From: a virus
Strand: one strand, 5' to 3'
DNA length: 41,825 bases
UHGV virus genome: UHGV-0474209
In this document: piece by piece, positions 2,800 to 33,644 of the stretch
Layout of the letters: each line of letters begins with the position of its first letter
How positions within the stretch are numbered: position 1 is the stretch's first letter
Notes under the pieces: generated by a model
Database searches by the model: none
The model's input: the letters and a program-made list of their open reading frames with translations, nothing else
What the model was told of the DNA's origin: nothing
Program-made: the position numbers and the translations under genes

Positions 2800-5700
2800 A
2801 TGGCAGCAAATGGAATGAGGAATCTGTCGGGTTCCACGAAACAATCAGAAGGACTCTTTTCACGTTTCAAAAATATGATGAGTAATTCTATTGGTAGATT
2901 TGGAAGTTTATTTGACAGACAATCGAAACAAGTCACTAGCGGAACATCTAGAATGGCTCAAGGCATGGGTGGTTTTGGACGCTCCATGAAGATGCTATGG
3001 TCGCAGTTATTCTTGTTCACGTTCTTATACCAAGGAATCATGACTCTAGCTGGCGGGCTTTTTAAAGCGTTACAGACTAACGCACAGTTTTCAGCTAGTT
3101 TAAATCAAATTAAGGTCAATTTACTAACTGCATTTTATCCAATTTACCAAGCAGCTTTGCCAGCGATAAATGCTTTGATGTCGGCCTTAGCTAAAGTTAC
3201 TGGCTATATTGCTGGATTTATATCCACACTTTTCGGAATGAACATCGGTGATGCATTCAACGGTGCTCAGGGACTAATGAACAATGTCCAAGCTTTAGAT
3301 GATACTGGAAGTGCTGCATCTGATGCATCAGATGGATACGATGAGATGGCTCAATCCATTAAGGATTCAAATAAACAACTTAAAGATCAGCATGATAGAA
3401 CGGAAGCAGCTCGAAAAAAAGCAAAAGAATATAAACGTCTTTTAGCTGGATTTGATGAATTAAACATTTTAGATTTCAGTGATGACTCTGATGACGAATC
3501 TAATGAGTTCATTCCTCAGGAAATTCCAACAAGACCCAAGACTCCGAATGGATCTGGCTCTGACCCATGGGCTGACTTTGGATCAGCAGCAGTTCCAGAA
3601 ACTCCGAAATGGTTAACGGATTTTGCCAAGAAGTTTAAAGACATCATGTCAAAACTCTTTGATCCAATAAAGAAAGCTTGGGACGCTCAGGGAAAACGTG
3701 TTATGGATGCGTTCAAATATTCATTATCCGAAATTGGAAAATTGATTAAGGCAATTGGTAAATCCTTTTTAGAGGTATGGACTAACGGAACCGGACAAAA
3801 GTTTGTAGAAAATCTTTTAGTGTTATTAGGTGATGTTCTTTATATAATTGGTGATATTGCAAGGGCGTTTAGAATTGCTTGGGAAGAAAACGGTCGAGGC
3901 ACTAAATTGATTCAGCAAATTTTTGATGCCTTAAATCAGTGGCTAGAAGTCTTGCATGATATCGCGGAGTCGTTCCGAGAAGTTTGGAATAATGGCACTG
4001 GAGTAGAACTCGCAAGGCAATTAATAGAATTCTATACTAAGCTATTTCATTTAATTGAAACCATAGGTAAAGCATTTCAAAATGCTTGGAATGATAACGA
4101 TCGAGGGACCGCGATCATTCAAGCCATCTTTAACGCGTTAACAGAAGTTCTTAAGCTAATCAACTCAATCATGACAGCATTTGACAAGGCTTTTGCTTCG
4201 GGAATTGGCGAAAGTATTCTAGCTAATATCATGGAGATCATTACGAATATTTTCAATACTGTTGGAAATCTGGCAAAAAGCTTTCGAGAGGCATGGGATG
4301 AAAATAACCGAGGTCAAACAATCTTTGAAGGGATTATGAAGATAATTGACACAGTCCTTGGGACGATCAAACGAATGACAGGAGCGACTGCAGAATGGGC
4401 TAAGATTCTTGACTTCCGTCCACTTCTTAATTCAATTAACGGATTACTTAAATCAATACAACCATTGACAAAAAACATTGGAGATGGCTTGGAATGGTTT
4501 TATAAGAATGTTTTACTTCCTTTAGCCAAATACACAATTCAAGATTTAATTCCAGCATTCCTTAAAGCATTAAGTGGTGCTCTAGATGCGCTTAACGGAA
4601 TAATCAATGGATGTAAACCCGCTTTTGATTTCTTTTGGAATTCCATGCTCAAACCAATTGCTGAATGGACTGGAGGAGTAATCGTTGATGTATTGAAAAA
4701 ACTAGGTGACGCTCTTTCGGGTATTGGGAATTGGATAACTGAACATCAAGAAGGGTTTTCAGCTTTTGTAACGGTTTTCGGAACATTTGTTGCCGCTCTG
4801 AAGGTAATTAGTGCTCTTTCAACTGTAATAGAAATAGTTGGAGGACTTTTCGCTGGATTGAGTGCTATTGGTGGTTTATCGGGAGTTCTTTCAGCAGTAG
4901 GAACTGCGATTGGCGGATTAATTGCCTTTTTAGGTGGACCATTAACCGTTGCAGCTGCTGCAGCCATAGCAGTAGGCGTAGCTCTTTGGCAAAATTGGGA
5001 TACCATCAAAGAGAAAGCTAGCCAGTTGAAAGACTGGATCGGTGAAAAATGGGAAGGTATAAAGACGGCAACATCTAATGCTTGGAATAATGTCAAAAAT
5101 TGGACTTCGGAAAAATGGAATGCAGCGAAAGATGCTGTGACTAGTAAAGCAGGTGAAATTTATACCGCCGCTAAAGATAAATTTACGAATACTGCAAATA
5201 CAGTTCGCGATAAAGCAGGTCAAGCAAAAGATTGGGTTTCTAGCAAATGGTCTGATTTAAAGAATTCCACTTCAACTAAATTTGAAGAAATACGTTCAAC
5301 TGCTGGTTCGAAAATGAACAGCGCAGCTGAAGCGGTTAGGTCTGGTGCAGAGACAGCTAAAAGTAAAGCTGTTTCTGCATTTTCAAGTTTGAAGGATGGA
5401 GTCGGAGGACATTTAAATTCAATAAAAACTACAGCTTCAGAAGTCTTTAAGAAAGTAGGGGGATGGGCGTCCGATTTACCTGGTGATATTGCAAAAGGCC
5501 TGTCTAGCGGTCTTAATACGATTAAACAAGCCATGAACAATATTGCCAATGGATTAGCCTCTGGAATAGGAAAAGGTGTTAATGGCATTATCTCTGGAGT
5601 TAACTGGGTTATGAGTAGTTTAGGTGCAGGTTGGCGATTATCTTCTTGGCACGTACCATATTTCAGTTATGCAACTGGGACGAGTTTTCATCCAGGCGGA

Positions 5701-12793: not shown

Positions 12794-12842
12794 CCTAGTT
12801 TATATTCTAACGCTTTGTATGCGTTTGCACAAATAATTCCTT

Positions 12843-16264: not shown

Positions 16265-17413
16265 CTATAAACCATTCTCTTCTAATTGACTGATTAAATC
16301 AGTTTTCATTTTATCAGTAATGTGAGTATAGATTTTATTTGTAACGTCGGCATCCTCATGGCCTACTCGATCCATAATAGCCTTCAAAGGAGTATTTTGT
16401 TCGGCTAGTAATGACACGTGGGTATGTCTTAGTATGTGAGAGGTTAAACGCTTGTTAATTCCACTTTTTTTACCTGCAGCAGCAAAAGAACGATTGAATG
16501 AACTATTTTGCATAGGCGTACCTGTTCGGGTCACAAAAACGAATCCATCATTATTAAAATCAGATTCGGATAACAGGTCTAGTTTATTTTCCTCAAAAGT
16601 ACGTTTTACTAGCTCAACCGTCCGTTGGGTCAATTGAACATCTCTATTTGATTTCTGGGTCTTAGTTGGTCCTATCGCTTTTTGTTTGTAACCTTTGCTG
16701 TAGTCGATTGTACCTCTAATGTGAACGATATTATTATCCAAGTCAAAATTTCCTTCTCTTAATGCGACTGCTTCGCCAAAGCGAACTCCTGTTAAATACA
16801 TAAATTCAGCTAATCGACCGACACGAAAGGTTGACCGACTTTTATAAAGTTGATCTAGGATCAATTTTACTTCATTTTTTTCAAGGTACTTATCCTCAAT
16901 ACGTTCTATATCTTCTAGGGTTTTCGCTTTAGGGATAATCTCTACGTTTTCAACAGGGTTTTTATAAGCGTAGCCGAGTTTAATCGCATATTTAAATACT
17001 AAGTTAAGATTCGACTTGATATGGGCGATATAAGTCTGAGAATAGTCGAGAGAGGCAAAGAAGTTTTGCAACAATCTTGTATCAATATTTGAAATCAGAA
17101 TGTCTTCGTTTATATTCTTGAAAATAATTTTTCGAATGGCTACATACGTGTTCTTTGAGTTAGGTCTCAAAGATTTAAAATAATTATTTTCCCATTCAGT
17201 ATAAACTTGCTGGAAGGGGACTTTCTCGATTTTCTTTTTAGCCAGTTCATTTTCTATTTTATCATTCAGGATACTTAGCGCTTTATTCCATGCTTGTTTT
17301 GATTGGCTATTTAGTACCACTGATTTTTTCCGAGTCTTTTCAGTATACGGGTCTTTGTAGCGTTCAATAAACTTGAAACGCCCATCTTTCAATGGTTCTA
17401 CCCACATTGTCAT
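16265..17413 (-). CDS. int: tyrosine integrase (phage integrase family)
   Basis: C-terminal catalytic region ...LTSHILRHTHVSLLAEQNTPLKAIMDRVGHEDADVTNKIYTHIT (R..H..R..Y), N-terminal SAM-like domain. Confidence 0.9.
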   Translation of the reverse strand: MTMWVEPLKDGRFKFIERYKDPYTEKTRKKSVVLNSQSKQAWNKALSILNDKIENELAKKKIEKVPFQQVYTEWENNYFKSLRPNSKNTYVAIRKIIFKNINEDILISNIDTRLLQNFFASLDYSQTYIAHIKSNLNLVFKYAIKLGYAYKNPVENVEIIPKAKTLEDIERIEDKYLEKNEVKLILDQLYKSRSTFRVGRLAEFMYLTGVRFGEAVALREGNFDLDNNIVHIRGTIDYSKGYKQKAIGPTKTQKSNRDVQLTQRTVELVKRTFEENKLDLLSESDFNNDGFVFVTRTGTPMQNSSFNRSFAAAGKKSGINKRLTSHILRHTHVSLLAEQNTPLKAIMDRVGHEDADVTNKIYTHITDKMKTDLISQLEENGL

Positions 17414-28934: not shown

Positions 28935-28960
28935 AAAATAGAGGCAGAAGCCTCTATTTT
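28935..28960. terminator. bidirectional terminator AATAGAGGC-AGAA-GCCTCTATT flanked by A and T runs
   Basis: Perfect 9-bp stem between convergent genes. Confidence 0.55.
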
Positions 28961-29486
28961 AAAACGCATATGCGATAAGAGAAATTCCAATCATCATTAA
29001 ATAAAAACCAACTAAGAATGCTAATGTAAATGCTGAAACAATTGGATTAAATAAGAGCATAATTCCTACAATTATCCCAATAATATTTACTATCAGAATA
29101 AACCAATAGTAACTTGATCCATTGACCTTGTAAATATCTGCTCCTACAAGCCCCATAATTGAATCTACAATAAACCAAATAGCAAAAATATAAGGTAGGG
29201 CTAGTAAACCTGCATTAGTATTGAAGAGTAAAAATACACCAATTAGCAGGTCAAATATACCGAGAATCATTAGTAGGGTTGATTTTTGATTAGTGAATTC
29301 ATGAAGTTTACGTCTAAAAAACAGTTCAAAAATTCCCTTTAAAACTGCAGCAATGGCAAAAACGTAGACAACTGCTTTTAAACTACTATCTGGATTATTA
29401 AATGATACTAAAGAAGCTATAACAAAAAGTAATCCAATTAAAAAATATTCCCAACTAAATCCAATTTTTCTTACCATGCTTATCAC
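28959..29486 (-). CDS. HdeD/DUF308-like multi-pass membrane protein (175 aa), counter-oriented moron
   Basis: Six hydrophobic helices, pattern resembling acid-resistance membrane protein HdeD family; convergent with upstream operon. Confidence 0.55.
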   Translation of the reverse strand: MISMVRKIGFSWEYFLIGLLFVIASLVSFNNPDSSLKAVVYVFAIAAVLKGIFELFFRRKLHEFTNQKSTLLMILGIFDLLIGVFLLFNTNAGLLALPYIFAIWFIVDSIMGLVGADIYKVNGSSYYWFILIVNIIGIIVGIMLLFNPIVSAFTLAFLVGFYLMMIGISLIAYAF

Positions 29487-29588: not shown

Positions 29589-30095
29589 ATGGAAATACGA
29601 GAAGTTATAGAGAAAATAAAGCAAGAAAAATATGATTTTTCAAAACCGTGGACGTCACTGGACAGATCGGATTATAAGGAAGGATACAATGATGCCTCCG
29701 ATGACATTATCGGAATTGTTAATCAACTAGACGAACCGACGAAAGTGATTGCTCATTTGGCCGAAAAATGGCACGAAGACATTGGTCCTGTTCTCTGGTG
29801 GGATTTCCCAGTCGAAGAACCACCATATTGCGGCACACCACTAGATGACGATTTTCCAAAGTATAAGAGACATTTTACTGAACTTCATATTCCAGACGAG
29901 GTCGAGGAAGAGCCGAAGTGGGTTGTGAAACGAAAGGACAACGGAAAATACGTAGAGTCGCTTGCCTTGGGAAAAGGAATTGGTTTGATTGCTGAAACAA
30001 CGGCTTCGCTTCAAGAAAATGCTTATAAGTTAAACAGCAAGGATCAAGCTGATGCTGTAGCAGTGCTAATTGATGGCACAGTTGAGAAAGTGTAG
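29589..30095 (+). CDS. hypothetical acidic protein (168 aa)
   Basis: ORF with AGAGG RBS. Confidence 0.4.
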   Translation: MEIREVIEKIKQEKYDFSKPWTSLDRSDYKEGYNDASDDIIGIVNQLDEPTKVIAHLAEKWHEDIGPVLWWDFPVEEPPYCGTPLDDDFPKYKRHFTELHIPDEVEEEPKWVVKRKDNGKYVESLALGKGIGLIAETTASLQENAYKLNSKDQADAVAVLIDGTVEKV

Positions 30096-30097
30096 GT

Positions 30098-30490
30098 GTG
30101 AGAATGAGTGAAGTAGTGATTGATCCACAGGAGTATTACGTGTGGCTTGCATGTGAAAACGGATGGAATCGAGCAGTTGGCTTCAAAGCAAAAATAGCTG
30201 GTATAGATTGTTCCGTCGTCATGGTGCCGTTTGATCCTATCGAGATAGTTTTTAGTGATCTCAACTCGGGATCAAGGATATTATCATTACCAATTTCGAT
30301 ACTTGATATGATCATGTGTGATACAAAAGAAAAAATGCTCGTATTGATGAAGGAGAATGCAGGTTTAGCAGCGAAAAAGATTGGGTATAGCGGAATAGAC
30401 TTAGTACGTGAAGAATCAAGAAAAGCCAAAGGTTCGTTTGAAAAGAAGTTTGGTCCAATGCCGGACTTTGAGAAAACTTCTGTTTACTAA
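30098..30490 (+). CDS. hypothetical protein (130 aa)
   Basis: ORF. Confidence 0.4.
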   Translation: MRMSEVVIDPQEYYVWLACENGWNRAVGFKAKIAGIDCSVVMVPFDPIEIVFSDLNSGSRILSLPISILDMIMCDTKEKMLVLMKENAGLAAKKIGYSGIDLVREESRKAKGSFEKKFGPMPDFEKTSVY

Positions 30491-30510
30491 GATTCGGTAA
30501 CTGAAGCCAT

Positions 30511-31535
30511 AGTAAAAAAGACTGCCGCGGTATGAAACGGCAGTCAATGAACTATGGGTAGCTGATTAGAATAGTTCAAAGGTATTTTACACCTAAAACA
30601 AAAATAAAAAAAGACAGCCGACCACTGGCTGCCTTGGAAAAGAACTCTCGTCTAGTTTCCGCTAGACAAAATAATTTTACCACAAAAACAGACCGCTGGG
30701 GATTGGTCAGCGGCCATGAGCTGATTGAAATATGCTTTTAACCCGATTAAAAAGGAGGGGCCAGCTCATCACTATTGTACACCTAGTAGTGCAAGAAAAA
30801 AAGACCGCTAGGCAGTCAGTTAGCGGTCAATGAGCCGATTGCGAAAGTTGTTTGTAGTCAACAAAAGAAAATATCAGCTCTTCATAATTGTATCATAAAA
30901 AGGACCGCTTTTTCATATGGCAGTCCCTAAGCTAGTGTAGTATTCTTGGATTATTTATGGATTTTTCTAGCTCAAATATATTGTACACCTATGTGAATCA
31001 AAGTGAAATAACAAAAAAATAAATTAAGAAGCCTAGGTTTTATGAATTTGAAAGGTATAATGCCTGGTTTTCGTTAGACAAAATAGTTTTATCACAAAAA
31101 TAGACCACTAAAAAAGCGGTCTACGAGCTAGATGAAATAGGTTTTGACGTTAACGAAAATTAGAAAGGAAAGAACTAGCTCATTTAGATGATACCATAGA
31201 AAAAGACCGCTGAACAGTTATATCAGCGGTCCCTGAGTTAGGTCGTTGTGCTTATAATAAGTGGGTTGTATTTTTATTTAACCTAACTCATTGGGCTAGT
31301 GCAGTGTCAAAATTGTCGGTCTCAAACTTCAAGAAAATTACTAGCCCTAGTCTTATTTTACACGGAGATAAGTAAGAAAAAAAGACCGCTGAGCAAAAAA
31401 ACAGCGGCTTGTGAACTAGAAAAATTCGGGTAGTATGGAAAAATTAGAAACCAGCTCACACTAAAAGTTTATCAAATTCATTTTTCCGTTTCAAGATCGT
31501 ACAAAAAAACGCTGGGAAAGTTCCCAACGCCTCTT
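30511..31535. repeat. ORF-free array of about 9 imperfect repeat units: conserved box (TTTTAYCACAAAAAYAGACCRCT) + GC-rich stem-loop GACCGCT-N6-10-AGCGGTC + second variable long-range stem
   Basis: Hairpins at 30520-30545, 30613-30631, 30691-30715, 30803-30828, ~30901-30926, ~31102-31122, 31205-31231, 31384-31407, ~31510-31530; no ORF >=60 aa on either strand over 1.08 kb. Confidence 0.7.
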
Positions 31536-31583
31536 TATGTATAAAAATTTGACAAGATAATTATACCATAAGGAGTGACTAAT

Positions 31584-32006
31584 TTGATGGCTTTATTACC
31601 AGAAGTAGACGCAAATAATACGAAAATGAGTGCACGAAAAATTTTATCTCAGTATCGCAAATGGGAACGTATCGCAGGCAAAGCAGCTATAGATATCAAA
31701 TCACCACTTCTAAGTGATATGCCCCGAACATTGGGTGTATCGATAAATAAGCCAGAAGATGGTCTATTGGAGCGTGTGTATGCTGAGAACGAACGAGATG
31801 CCATTCTAAGAGCTTTAGCCTCACTTTCCTGGAGAAGTCGGAAAATACTAGCCATGACTTATTGCGAGCCTGAAAAGGCTTCTGTGTATGAAATAAGTTT
31901 AGAATTGCACTTCAGTGAAGTTCACGTGAAACGATTACGACACATTGCATTGTTGGAATTTGCGGAAGCTTATAAGCATGGGCAATGTCTGATTTACAAA
32001 AAATGA
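31584..32006 (+). CDS. arpU: ArpU-family late transcriptional activator (sigma-70 region-4-like)
   Basis: Resemblance to ArpU/phage late regulator family (…SWRSRKILAMTYCEPEKASVYEISLELHFSEVHVKRLRHIALLEFA); AAGGAG RBS; GTG 31575 alternative start. Confidence 0.7.
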   Translation: MMALLPEVDANNTKMSARKILSQYRKWERIAGKAAIDIKSPLLSDMPRTLGVSINKPEDGLLERVYAENERDAILRALASLSWRSRKILAMTYCEPEKASVYEISLELHFSEVHVKRLRHIALLEFAEAYKHGQCLIYKK

Positions 32007-32175
32007 TACTTTTTTGATACTTTTTGTTCGAAAAAAGGTGATAGAATAGTAGTGTAAAAATAGTGTACAAGACGGCACACAAAAAAATAAATGATGAATG
32101 GAGTTGACAAACTTCATTTCCGTTTAAAGTTCGCTGTGCTGTCTATTGTTATCAAATATTTTTATTAAAACTTAT

Positions 32176-32232
32176 AGATTTCGAATATGTTCTTTTGTAT
32201 AATATTTAGTGTAGAGAAGTTAAGATGAGTAG
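32176..32232 (+). promoter_or_regulatory. extended -10 promoter-like element TTTTGTATAATATTT + conserved leader (copy 1)
   Basis: TGTATAAT at 32196-32203; ~45-nt near-identical to copy 2. Confidence 0.4.
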
Positions 32233-32384
32233 CTCCATTTTTATGACTCTGCGCAAGTTAAAAAAATGATATACCTTGAGAATGATTTTTTAAACAATTC
32301 AAAAAACGATCTTACTCATCTTAACAACTCTACAGGATGTGAGTACATCACGTTCTTTTTTGCTGTTAAATTAAAACATACTAG

Positions 32385-32440
32385 CATGATTATTAGTCTT
32401 TTTGTATAATATTTGCGTAGAAAAGTGAAAAGATGGTGGC
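32385..32440 (+). promoter_or_regulatory. extended -10 promoter TTTTTGTATAATATTT + leader (copy 2) upstream of toxin-like ORF
   Basis: TGTATAAT at 32403-32410. Confidence 0.45.
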
Positions 32441-32493
32441 TAATCTCTTGAATAAAGGGGTGATGCCTATGGTTCATAGCTTTATCCCTAGAA

Positions 32494-32577
32494 GGGAGTA
32501 GGCATGTCTGTTTATCAAGCGTTGTCGCTGATGATCGCATTTGCGACGTTAGTGTTGCTGATTACAGATCACAAGAA
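32494..32577 (+). CDS. candidate type I toxin, Fst-like 27-aa hydrophobic peptide MSVYQALSLMIAFATLVLLITDHKNKK
   Basis: GGGAG RBS 6 nt upstream; single TM helix + lysine tail; convergent antisense transcription unit overlaps its 3' end. Confidence 0.45.
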
Positions 32578-32690
32578 CAAAAAATAACCATCTAACACTT
32601 TAGCAGAGAGTAGATGGTTAAACCATTGAAATTAAGCCACCGTCTTTTTAACGGTTCTACATGGGGCGTGTTACCAGCACGTCCTTTTTC
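32572..32690 (-). ncRNA. candidate antisense antitoxin sRNA (~110 nt) convergent to toxin mRNA
   Basis: Minus-strand promoter TTGATT-16-TATAAT (TGaTATAAT) at 32698-32725 and minus-strand terminator (CCATCTA...TAGATGG + TTATTTTTTG) at 32570-32617. Confidence 0.4.
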
Positions 32691-32729
32691 TATGTCCATT
32701 ATATCATGTGAATAAAGAAAATCAATCAA

Positions 32730-32755
32730 GATCGCTTCGGCGGTCTTTTTATTTT
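32730..32755 (+). terminator. rho-independent terminator (GATCGC-TTCG-GCGGTC + TTTTTATTTT) for toxin transcript
   Basis: UUCG tetraloop hairpin then T-run. Confidence 0.5.
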
Positions 32756-32985
32756 GGATACAAAAATAGACCACTACCGGGTAGTAGTGGTCAGGAATTA
32801 AATGAAAAAGATGTTAAAGGGTTGTTAGACAAGTATAACATCATAGCGTTTACATAGCAATACAAAAAAGAGCCACTGTTTCCGCAGCAACCCTTTAGTG
32901 TAACAAGTAACTATAAATATATCATCCTTGGCCATGTATTTCAACACACAAAAATAGACCGCTGTTTCCGCAGCAATCTATCTGT
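32755..32985. repeat. three further units of the AAAAATAGACCRCT box/hairpin repeat family downstream of ArpU
   Basis: 32761-32791 (9-bp stem GACCACTAC/GTAGTGGTC), 32858-32890 and 32942-32978 (…AGACCGCTGTTTCCGCAGCAA…). Confidence 0.5.
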
Positions 32986-33037
32986 GAAACGTAAACAATT
33001 TATACATTAAGTATACAATAATAACGCTTACAGAGCA

Positions 33038-33262
33038 ATGAGAACTCACTGGCATGTGTCGTTAAACAATAGGTACCCACTGCCAATGAAAGGACAACAT
33101 AAACGTGTTGTGATGTCTGTTCAAATGAAGGCGAAGTATTCGATTGTAGAAATGATCAGAGAGGCAACGCCAGTAGAGGTTGATCATTGCAAGCTAGTCT
33201 ATTGTGGGTGCGGCCGTTGGAAAGATGCTCATATACAAGAAAACATCAGAAAATACGTTTAG
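33038..33262 (+). CDS. hypothetical protein (74 aa, His/Cys-containing)
   Basis: ORF upstream of terS. Confidence 0.3.
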   Translation: MRTHWHVSLNNRYPLPMKGQHKRVVMSVQMKAKYSIVEMIREATPVEVDHCKLVYCGCGRWKDAHIQENIRKYV

Positions 33263-33287
33263 TTTGTTTTAGTTTGGAGGTGATTTT

Positions 33288-33644
33288 ATGAAACTTACTA
33301 ATAGGCATAATAAGGCTATAGAATTGCTGTTCGAAGGCTCTTTAAAGCGGATTGAAATCGCTGAAGAACTAAAGATAAGCGAACAGACACTTTACAATTG
33401 GTTAAAAGACGAAGATTTCACTCATGCTTATGATGAATATGTAAAAACTATTATGGGTAAGTCATCAGGTAAAGCGTTGAATACAATGTTGAAGCTTTTA
33501 GCAGCCAGATCAGAAATGGTTCGTTTTAACGCAGCTAAAGATATTCTTGATCGTGGAGGATTCGCTCCTGTTGATAAGAAGGAGATTACTTCAATTGAGC
33601 CTCCTGTATTTAAGGATGACATCAGTGGTGAGCCAGATGGTTAA
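33288..33644 (+). CDS. terS: terminase small subunit (HTH-containing, 118 aa)
   Basis: HTH IEIAEELKISEQTLYNWLK; overlaps terL start by 8 nt. Confidence 0.6.
   Translation: MKLTNRHNKAIELLFEGSLKRIEIAEELKISEQTLYNWLKDEDFTHAYDEYVKTIMGKSSGKALNTMLKLLAARSEMVRFNAAKDILDRGGFAPVDKKEITSIEPPVFKDDISGEPDG

Follow-up and report, generated by a model that had tools for sequence, protein, structure and literature searches.

We analysed the UHGV virus genome UHGV-0474209 (41,825 nucleotides (nt), hereafter the window) and describe an array of structured repeats at positions 30511-31535, placed between the last early gene of an Enterococcus prophage and arpU, the gene for its late-gene transcriptional activator. 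The array very probably consists of eight to nine small-RNA (sRNA) genes, each independently transcribed from the minus strand. The feature is real and statistically solid. Its best description is that of a new family of antisense sRNA genes which are carried by phages and can form stacked arrays where early genes give way to late ones. A tentative role for the RNAs of the array is to gate or time the onset of late gene expression.

An earlier interpretation made from the letters alone (the sequence-only reading) had singled out 30511-31535 as free of open reading frames (ORFs), and the longest ORF on either strand is indeed only 44 amino acids (aa). It had also proposed that each unit ends in a minus-strand terminator; we found nine such hairpins followed by T-runs, ending (in plus-strand coordinates) at 31503, 31377, 31200, 31096, 30897, 30796, 30684, 30606 and 30514. 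All nine, spanning 30514-31531, combine a GC-rich hairpin (-9 to -17 kcal/mol) with a run of T5-T7 and are predicted intrinsic terminators. A scan of 3.4 kb on both strands (30000-33400) returned 17 terminator-like sites versus 2.1 +/- 1.3 in shuffled sequences. On the plus strand, the array contains one weak terminator-like site (30703-30728), and a promoter scan listed no sigma-70-like promoter within it. The A-rich box and the long segment said to be shared between units are both present, the former as the A-rich/GACCRCT repeat family D1 and the latter as repeat D8 (46 nt, 85% identical, at 30652-30697 and 31064-31109). Mean identity among units is only ~60%, their spacing is irregular (78-199 nt, with repeat start-to-start distances of 112, 300, 102 and 179 nt) and Tandem Repeats Finder reported no repeat in the array. 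Details of the sequence-only reading need revision. Its count of about nine units holds for the terminators, but only seven are units of one family, to which cassettes R7 and R0 are added. The GTGrTAAAA box, taken for the end part of a unit, is actually the extended -10 promoter (TGnTAAAAT) of the following unit.

Cassettes are arranged head to tail, the next promoter coming straight after each terminator T-run. In the seven family units (R1, R2b, R3, R4, R5, R6 and R8), the -10 box is of sigma-A type (TACAAT, TAAAAT, TATCAT or TAAACT), has a TGn or an adjacent TG in front of it and usually lacks a good -35. The predicted RNA starts 4-6 nt past this box with (A/G/U)YGAGCUrG, and continues through a variable stretch of 15-45 nt, the complement CyAGCUCa, a further 1-3 nt and the GC-rich terminator hairpin with T5-7. 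Its first 7-11 nt pair with the sequence right before the terminator, forming a paired-termini stem that closes the variable stretch into a loop. Predicted RNAs are 62-150 nt long, with fold z-scores of -2.6 to -6.1. From the arpU side, the cassettes and their predicted signals are as follows:

31503-31568, minus strand: R0, a tiny antisense cassette abutting arpU; extended -10 TGGTATAAT at 31560-31568, whose -10 box adjoins the arpU Shine-Dalgarno (SD) sequence, upstream of it and on the opposite strand; predicted transcript ~50 nt (~31553 down to 31503) with terminator hairpin 31510-31531 and T7.
31377-31494, minus strand: R1 sRNA gene; -35 TTGAAA at 31489-31494, -10 TGATAAACT at 31466-31474; RNA 31377-31459 (83 nt) with closing stem and terminator; fold -23 kcal/mol, z = -4.2; covariance-model score 71.3 bits.
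31198-31363, minus strand: R2 sRNA gene; -10 GTGTAAAAT at 31355-31363; one promoter for an RNA of ~150 nt with two long hairpins, R2a (GGGCUAGU/ACUAGCCC, ~31293-31347) and R2b (UGAGUUAGGU/ACCUAACUCA, with the terminator at 31198-31291; 60.9 bits); fold -44.9 kcal/mol, z = -5.2.
31096-31196, minus strand: R3 sRNA gene; extended -10 TGGTATCAT at 31188-31196; RNA 31096-31183 (88 nt), whose loop begins with UUCUUUCCUUUCUAA; 67.9 bits.
31020-31094, minus strand: degenerate R7 copy that lacks a clear terminator, with GTCTAACGAAAAC and a TGATAAAAC box at 31086-31094; shares the D8 repeat (85% identical) with 30652-30697.
30896-30988, minus strand: R4 sRNA gene; -10 GTGTACAAT at 30980-30988; RNA 30896-30975 (80 nt); 57.1 bits.
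30796-30895, minus strand: R5 sRNA gene; extended -10 TGATACAAT at 30887-30895; RNA 30796-30882 (87 nt); 75.1 bits.
30684-30782, minus strand: R6 sRNA gene; -10 GTGTACAAT at 30774-30782; RNA 30684-30769 (86 nt), whose loop carries CCCCUCCUUUUU and GCAUAUUUCAA; 70.3 bits; near homologues lie upstream of yopX in other phages.
30606-30682, minus strand: R7 sRNA gene, of a different type; extended -10 TGGTAAAAT at 30674-30682; RNA ~62 nt (30606-30667) with a GUCUAGCGGAAACUAGAC hairpin and terminator.
30513-30592, minus strand: R8 sRNA gene, the last cassette; -10 GTGTAAAAT at 30584-30592; RNA 30513-30579 (67 nt); fold z = -6.1; 39.3 bits with the model built without it and 51.3 bits with a broader model (model R2); its terminator ends 24 nt past the stop codon of the upstream plus-strand gene.

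Many unit promoters, including those at 30774-30782 and 30980-30988 and others in many loci, read (T)TGTACAAT, which contains the palindrome TGTACA; the TTGTACAA form of this palindrome occurs in several loci. At these promoters the TG abuts the hexamer directly, whereas a canonical extended -10 has one base in between.

For the structural evidence, we used six units to build a covariance model whose two helices are the closing stem and the terminator. This model fits seven units at 39-75 bits, including R8, which had been left out of building. A search of other phage genomes with such a model had been suggested by the sequence-only reading; we fetched candidate loci by two exact-pattern scans of IMG/VR and then scanned these with the model, which yielded 116 further copies in 45 IMG/VR viral contigs. 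Together with the seven in the window, the resulting 123 matches represent 50 distinct sequences from 46 loci (window included) and form 23 clusters at 80% identity. Many loci that carry only the pattern yield no model match, indicating that the model is discriminating. Across the 50 distinct homologues, pairing is found in 93.7% of cells and compensatory change at 16 of 17 pairs, covariation values that were reached by 0 of 500 shuffles; when the partner is slid by 1-3 columns, pairing falls to 20-46%. Fitting the alignment to the model favours structure, but the helices are ungapped and the first 38 sequences gave the same result. The earlier claim of a long-range stem preserved by covariation is thereby borne out.

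The minus strand can be identified as the RNA strand because the T-runs occur only there, because non-Watson-Crick cells of the core pairs, read on that strand, are G-U far more often than A-C (45 versus 8), and because the -10 boxes face the minus direction. Of 40 distinct contexts, 33 have a TAnnnT box that stops 4-6 nt short of the unit start, and in 31 of these 33 a TG adjoins the box; other offsets give a background of ~1/40. Among the seven exceptions, four are internal R2b hairpins, whose promoter is ahead of R2a, and two have the box 1 nt further upstream. On sequence evidence, the units thus have what is expected of stand-alone sRNA genes, a promoter at a fixed distance and a conserved covarying structure, and of the options left by the sequence-only reading it is the tandem array of minus-strand sRNA genes that the one-directional terminators, the -10 boxes, the helix covariation and the G-U excess support.

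Coding readings of the units were considered and rejected. R3 reads ATG AGC TAG and R6 homologues read GTG AGC TGA, so that several members have a stop at codon 3; this third-codon stop in R3 and the R6 homologues also disposes of a leaderless peptide. A 160-aa ORF seems to start within R6-like units at four loci (L009, L010, L015 and L023), but the true yopX start (MIPKFKAWDK) has its own SD and lies downstream of the unit, the overlap being an in-frame artefact. A sense-strand promoter inside the units, with TTGAAA as the -35, was discarded for want of a consistent -10 at 17 nt.

Family units number from 1 to 7 per locus. All units within a locus are on one strand, and 74 of 79 flanking ORFs (>=90 aa) are on the opposite one. 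In 26 of the 46 loci the units are directly upstream of a late regulator, which is arpU in 21 and another sigma70_r4 gene of Ltr type in five. These five loci (L013, L014, L020, L024 and L027) carry the same seven-unit array that precedes arpU in some other contigs; here, what follows the array and R0 is a gene for a 162-aa sigma70_r4 protein with no relation to ArpU (L024 8638-9126, for example), and the array-plus-R0 module has therefore been exchanged independently of the late-regulator family. In further phages, R0 and arpU have just one unit between them, and single units also occur before yopX, with the unit promoter ~20 nt from the yopX ribosome-binding site. Array composition varies among phages, and units that are identical in other respects have exchanged their terminators. 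The seven-unit array is near-unchanged in ~ten viral contigs, and the 1.06-kb array itself is found at 96-99% identity in three E. raffinosus megaplasmids of ~1 Mb each, so prophages of this type also reside on these secondary replicons:

NZ_CP104763.1, 991038-992096: array copy, megaplasmid.
NZ_CP104393.1, 98052-99093: array copy, megaplasmid.
NZ_CP104765.1, 876917-877958: array copy, megaplasmid.

An E. canintestini prophage whose ArpU is 90% identical to that of the window has R0 and no array. With the broader model R2, no family member was found near arpU in phiFL2A or phiFL3A (E. faecalis) or in prophages of five other Enterococcus species, and megablast and blastn searches with the array, together with blastn of one divergent unit, returned no match among 50,697 sequenced phage records.

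An R0-like arrangement is present opposite arpU in 16 of 16 Enterococcus arpU/ltr loci examined, which include phiFL2A, phiFL3A, phiEf11, one E. faecium phage and prophages of seven species. In this layout, 2-4 nt past the SD complement, a perfect extended -10 (TGnTATAAT) begins; a predicted RNA of 30-55 nt comes next, with a flagged intrinsic terminator at its end in 15 of the 16 loci. The exception is a record labelled Listeria phage LM 4-11-1, in which an R7/Ref1C-type hairpin loop is followed by an interrupted T-run and the terminator is not flagged. R0 sites are located as follows:

Window, 31503-31568, minus strand: R0.
L001, 2655-2710: R0 site.
L083, 2425-2490: R0 site.
L002-L007, ~3900-4000: R0 sites.
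L009, 550-640: R0 site.
L085 and L086: R0 sites.

Given the R0 promoter at 16 of 16 loci, the arpU leader has a backward cassette as a constant element, which the array appears to expand upon. No description of the R0 cassette was found in the Ltr paper (PMC3753634). The exceptional record (L084, OR846730.1, UNVERIFIED_ORG), which carries the R7/Ref1C-type terminator loop CAGTGGTCGG, has an arpU leader almost identical to those of E. faecium/durans-type prophages (L005-L007 and L086), and its host label may be wrong.

Enterococcus chromosome makes up ~16 kb of the window, including a tRNA-Met at 12842 and a host bile-salt hydrolase identical to those of assembly GCA_005347505.1 and others. An integrase gene (16265-17413, minus strand) is followed by a siphovirus-type prophage read on the plus strand; its recognisable genes include those for a terminase, a cytosine methylase and a portal protein, the last of which shares 80% identity with the portal of Enterococcus phage phiFL3A. 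The genes on either side of the array are:

30098-30490, plus strand: last early gene, PHROG 5780, unknown function.
31575-32006, plus strand: arpU, late-gene transcriptional activator (Ltr family I), probable start ATG 31587, directly 3' of the array in the phage reading direction.

The arpU product was identified by PHROG 248 (transcriptional activator, E 1.7e-34) and a Sigma70_r4 domain. In related phages, genes of the ltr/arpU type are the distal end of a repressor-controlled early operon, and the binding repeats of Ltr are 3' of the ltr gene, right before terS (PMC3753634). Inside the plus-strand early region of the window, a gene for a DUF308 (HdeD-like membrane) protein (28959-29486, minus strand; PHROG 38735) resembles a protein-coding moron and has the same orientation as the RNA cassettes.

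Further small elements lie beyond arpU. Just 3' of it is a type I toxin-antitoxin module (32395-32701), with a plus-strand toxin mRNA (Rfam rli28, 133 bits, weak BsrG similarity) that encodes MSVYQALSLMIAFATLVLLITDHKNKK (ORF 32504-32587) and a convergent RatA-like RNA (32615-32701, minus strand; 48.9 bits against a gathering score of 49; promoter TTGATT-16-TATAAT). A second small plus-strand transcript candidate (32180-32366) has a promoter and leader like those of the toxin mRNA (TTGTATAATATTT), an inverted repeat with 33-nt arms (32210-32242/32302-32334, 79% complementary) and a terminator at 32334-32356, and is possibly a decayed duplicate of the toxin leader. The three elements that the sequence-only reading had counted as additional units of the array are located between the toxin-antitoxin module and terS:

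32762-33018, minus strand: S1-S3, promoter-plus-terminator cassettes; -10 boxes at 33010-33018, 32916-32924 and 32832-32840; terminators ending at 32950, 32862 and 32762.

These are real cassettes and have the terminator box ACAAAAATAGACCRCT in common with the array. They are not members of the array family, however, since the GAGCU closing stem is missing and covariance-model scores reach only 20-25 bits (E 0.01-0.1). The terminator loops of S1 and S2 are GCGGAAAC, a loop motif that recurs in the hairpin of R7 and in the consensus of Rfam family Ref1C.

The best overall explanation that we can offer is a cluster of minus-strand sRNA genes gating early read-through into arpU, which we consider to have close to an even chance of being correct. 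Its central step, gating in cis by the cassettes, is put forward tentatively, on the basis of an orientation opposite to arpU, a position upstream of it and an overlap with the arpU transcript that we infer from related phages. The stack occupies an untranslated stretch between the last early gene and arpU, and its cassettes would fire head-on against early read-through, because in related phages transcription of the early operon extends over the arpU-type gene (PMC3753634). The cassette RNAs would be perfectly complementary to the arpU leader. Convergent promoters would then cause transcriptional interference, and the stable hairpin RNAs could pair with the sense leader, leading to its degradation or processing. 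In a lysogen, leaky arpU expression would be quenched; once the prophage is induced, late genes would be delayed until strong early transcription had overcome or titrated the cassettes. Several points weigh against such a gate. The promoters and terminators of the array are sequence predictions. Single units precede yopX, so the role would not be specific to arpU, and the lack of an array in the close E. canintestini relative implies that the basic lytic programme can do without it. Other phages have minus-strand protein-coding morons in the slot upstream of arpU (for example, phiFL2A gp32), which suits trans-acting cargo. Finally, neither pairing nor interference in cis needs a strongly conserved GAGCU stem sequence or loop motifs common to four clusters (YUCCUU, GCAUAUUUCAA).

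Several of these observations are shared by the main rival, a somewhat unlikely alternative in which the units are trans-acting moron sRNAs, that is, accessory genes expressed in lysogeny whose variable loops, held by the paired termini, pair with host mRNAs or with transcripts of superinfecting phages. The phage targets would carry the same intergenic modules, and a CUCCUU subfamily, resembling an anti-SD sequence, would block ribosome-binding sites. Besides the occupation of the slot by protein morons elsewhere, this alternative would account for self-contained promoter-gene-terminator modules opposite to the lytic operons, for the shuffled array composition among phages and for a GAGCU sequence conserved far past pairing needs. 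The scaffold is kept while loops are unrelated between clusters (identity of 0.74 in the closing stem and 0.57 in the loop, versus 0.52 in shuffles), loops are retained within orthologous groups despite the terminator swaps, YUCCUU occurs at loop offset 2-4 in 8-9 of 23 clusters and GCAUAUUUCAA is common to four. The searches for targets speak against it: we found no complementarity of >=14 nt elsewhere in the window (host part ~16 kb) and no significant loop match outside the units in ~0.7 Mb of related phage DNA (the best, of 16 nt, has an E of 0.004 uncorrected for multiple tests), and the best duplexes with 48 translation-initiation regions of the window were no better than those of shuffled loops. 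Nor is TTGAAATATG, the complement of a conserved loop motif, enriched in the window. A bolder version, which we regard as a long shot, is that the units form a natural, protein-independent 'programmable antisense' platform, in which a conserved scaffold displays hypervariable loops and cassettes are collected and shuffled into arrays. If true, the RNAs would silence matching modules or mRNAs of competing phages (superinfection exclusion) or host genes, and the array would be a heritable antisense repertoire with CRISPR-like logic in which each 'spacer' is its own gene.

The same mobility could reflect cassettes that are structurally constrained yet neutral or selfish, 'linker' sequences that spread by recombination between phage intergenic regions, pile up in a permissive slot and act at most as insulators stopping antisense transcription. 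The close relative without the array, the variable combinations and positions of units, the terminators exchanged between otherwise identical units, and the decay and rearrangement seen in the degenerate R7 copy and the fused two-hairpin R2 are all compatible with this idea. We consider it improbable, as compensatory changes hold both helices intact across 23 clusters, the promoter keeps its fixed distance in 33 of 40 contexts, the seven-unit array persists near-unchanged in the ~ten viral contigs and three megaplasmids and plain insulators have no need of promoters of their own. Highly improbable is an element acting on the plus strand or as DNA, whether as hairpins that process, stabilise or protect the sense mRNA from Rho, or as cruciforms or protein sites for replication, packaging or ArpU. 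The sense transcript would necessarily contain mirror-image hairpins, 1.1 kb of untranslated operon might need protection and the array does lie between the replication and packaging modules. However, every G-U pair on the minus strand is an A-C mismatch on the plus strand, so the excess of 45 over 8 speaks for a minus-strand RNA and not for DNA cruciforms; T-runs and -10 boxes likewise point in the minus direction only, no tandem repeat is found and the Ltr binding repeats of related phages are elsewhere, 3' of ltr and before terS (PMC3753634). The protein-binding and ori/pac options raised by the sequence-only reading accordingly gain no support.

For the gate on arpU, the significance lies in the late activators themselves. 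Apart from repressor control of the early operon, little is understood of how temperate Gram-positive phages silence ArpU/RinA/Ltr proteins in lysogens and time them once induced, and an antisense-gene stack together with R0 in the arpU leader would offer a concrete, testable RNA layer for this decision. The family is absent from Rfam 15 and comprises 50 distinct members, whose structure is clearly backed by covariation and whose multi-copy, shuffled organisation is unusual. Should the RNAs act in trans, they would amount to a large sRNA repertoire carried by prophages in enterococci, among which are hospital pathogens.

We compared the array with known systems. Rfam 15 gave no gathering-level match in 30480-31620, and at E values up to 10 only weak chance-level matches and Ref1C were returned. 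Ref1C (RF02845) matches R7 at 35.1 bits against a gathering score of 90 (E 0.0036; 30601-30717, minus strand), the match extending over the neighbouring unit's terminator and the R7 promoter. R7 has the hairpin loop GCGGAAA and an identical terminator loop (CCAGUGGUCGG), which suggests that it is distantly related to Ref1C; the resemblance is limited to R7 and its degenerate copy and does not extend to the seven main units. Ref1C is the Enterococcus faecalis sRNA 1C; 5'tagRACE and Northern blotting detected it, and every sequenced E. faecalis isolate has it (PMC3074167). No description of such arrays was found in that study or in PMC4408782, PMC7724050, PMC3753634 or PMC12197685.

With CRISPR and ToxI the array shares repeated structured RNA elements with variable parts on a mobile element, but each of its units has its own promoter and terminator. 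A CRISPR array was rejected for the lack of a tandem repeat, the irregular spacing, the ~60% identity of units and the absence of an adjoining cas gene. A type III (ToxIN-like) system was rejected as there is again no tandem repeat, no minus-strand ORF of >=60 aa in or beside the array and no adjoining toxN-like gene, and the neighbours have no PADLOC or Pfam toxin match; PADLOC found no defence system among them, its only match being a phage orphan cytosine methylase. The sequence-only reading, which could not match the array to CRISPR or toxI, was right in this respect. Type I antitoxin RNAs were also dismissed, there being no conserved small ORF opposite or beside the units, and the real type I module (32395-32701) is separate.

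Sibling sRNA clusters offer a closer parallel. Listeria LhrC1-4 and the streptococcal csRNAs are chromosomal, under two-component control and have a seed motif conserved in every copy. Like the array, they are side-by-side paralogous sRNA genes with their own promoters and terminators, some with CU-rich motifs resembling anti-SD sequences; unlike them, the array is phage-borne and antisense to an operon, and has a scaffold of paired 5' and 3' termini with loops unrelated between clusters. No Rfam match to the LhrC or csRNA families was obtained at E up to 10. The form of a unit is also that of the paired-termini antisense RNAs that Nakashima and colleagues reportedly engineered in 2006, in which an insert between paired ends is followed by a terminator, stabilising the RNA and exposing the loop, although those RNAs are synthetic and no target was found for the natural loops.

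Single antisense switches are known at comparable positions. In prgQ/prgX (Anti-Q) of Enterococcus plasmid pCF10 and in lambda OOP and paQ, which are directed against cII and the late regulator Q, one RNA per system, with a constitutive promoter and an intrinsic terminator, overlaps a coding region or a defined leader. As in the array, short antisense RNAs face a regulated operon head-on, at a gene on which a developmental decision depends; these switches join transcriptional interference with RNA pairing, the same logic that we propose for the array. The array differs in having up to nine cassettes in a gene-free leader and in belonging to a multi-member family that also occurs at yopX, and no sequence or Rfam relationship to the pCF10 or lambda systems was found. 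In working logic, its closest counterparts would be convergent-promoter/antisense switches and sibling sRNA clusters. What is known is the kind of element, phage antisense or sibling sRNAs; what is new is the stacked multi-gene organisation, the scaffold and the link to a late activator.

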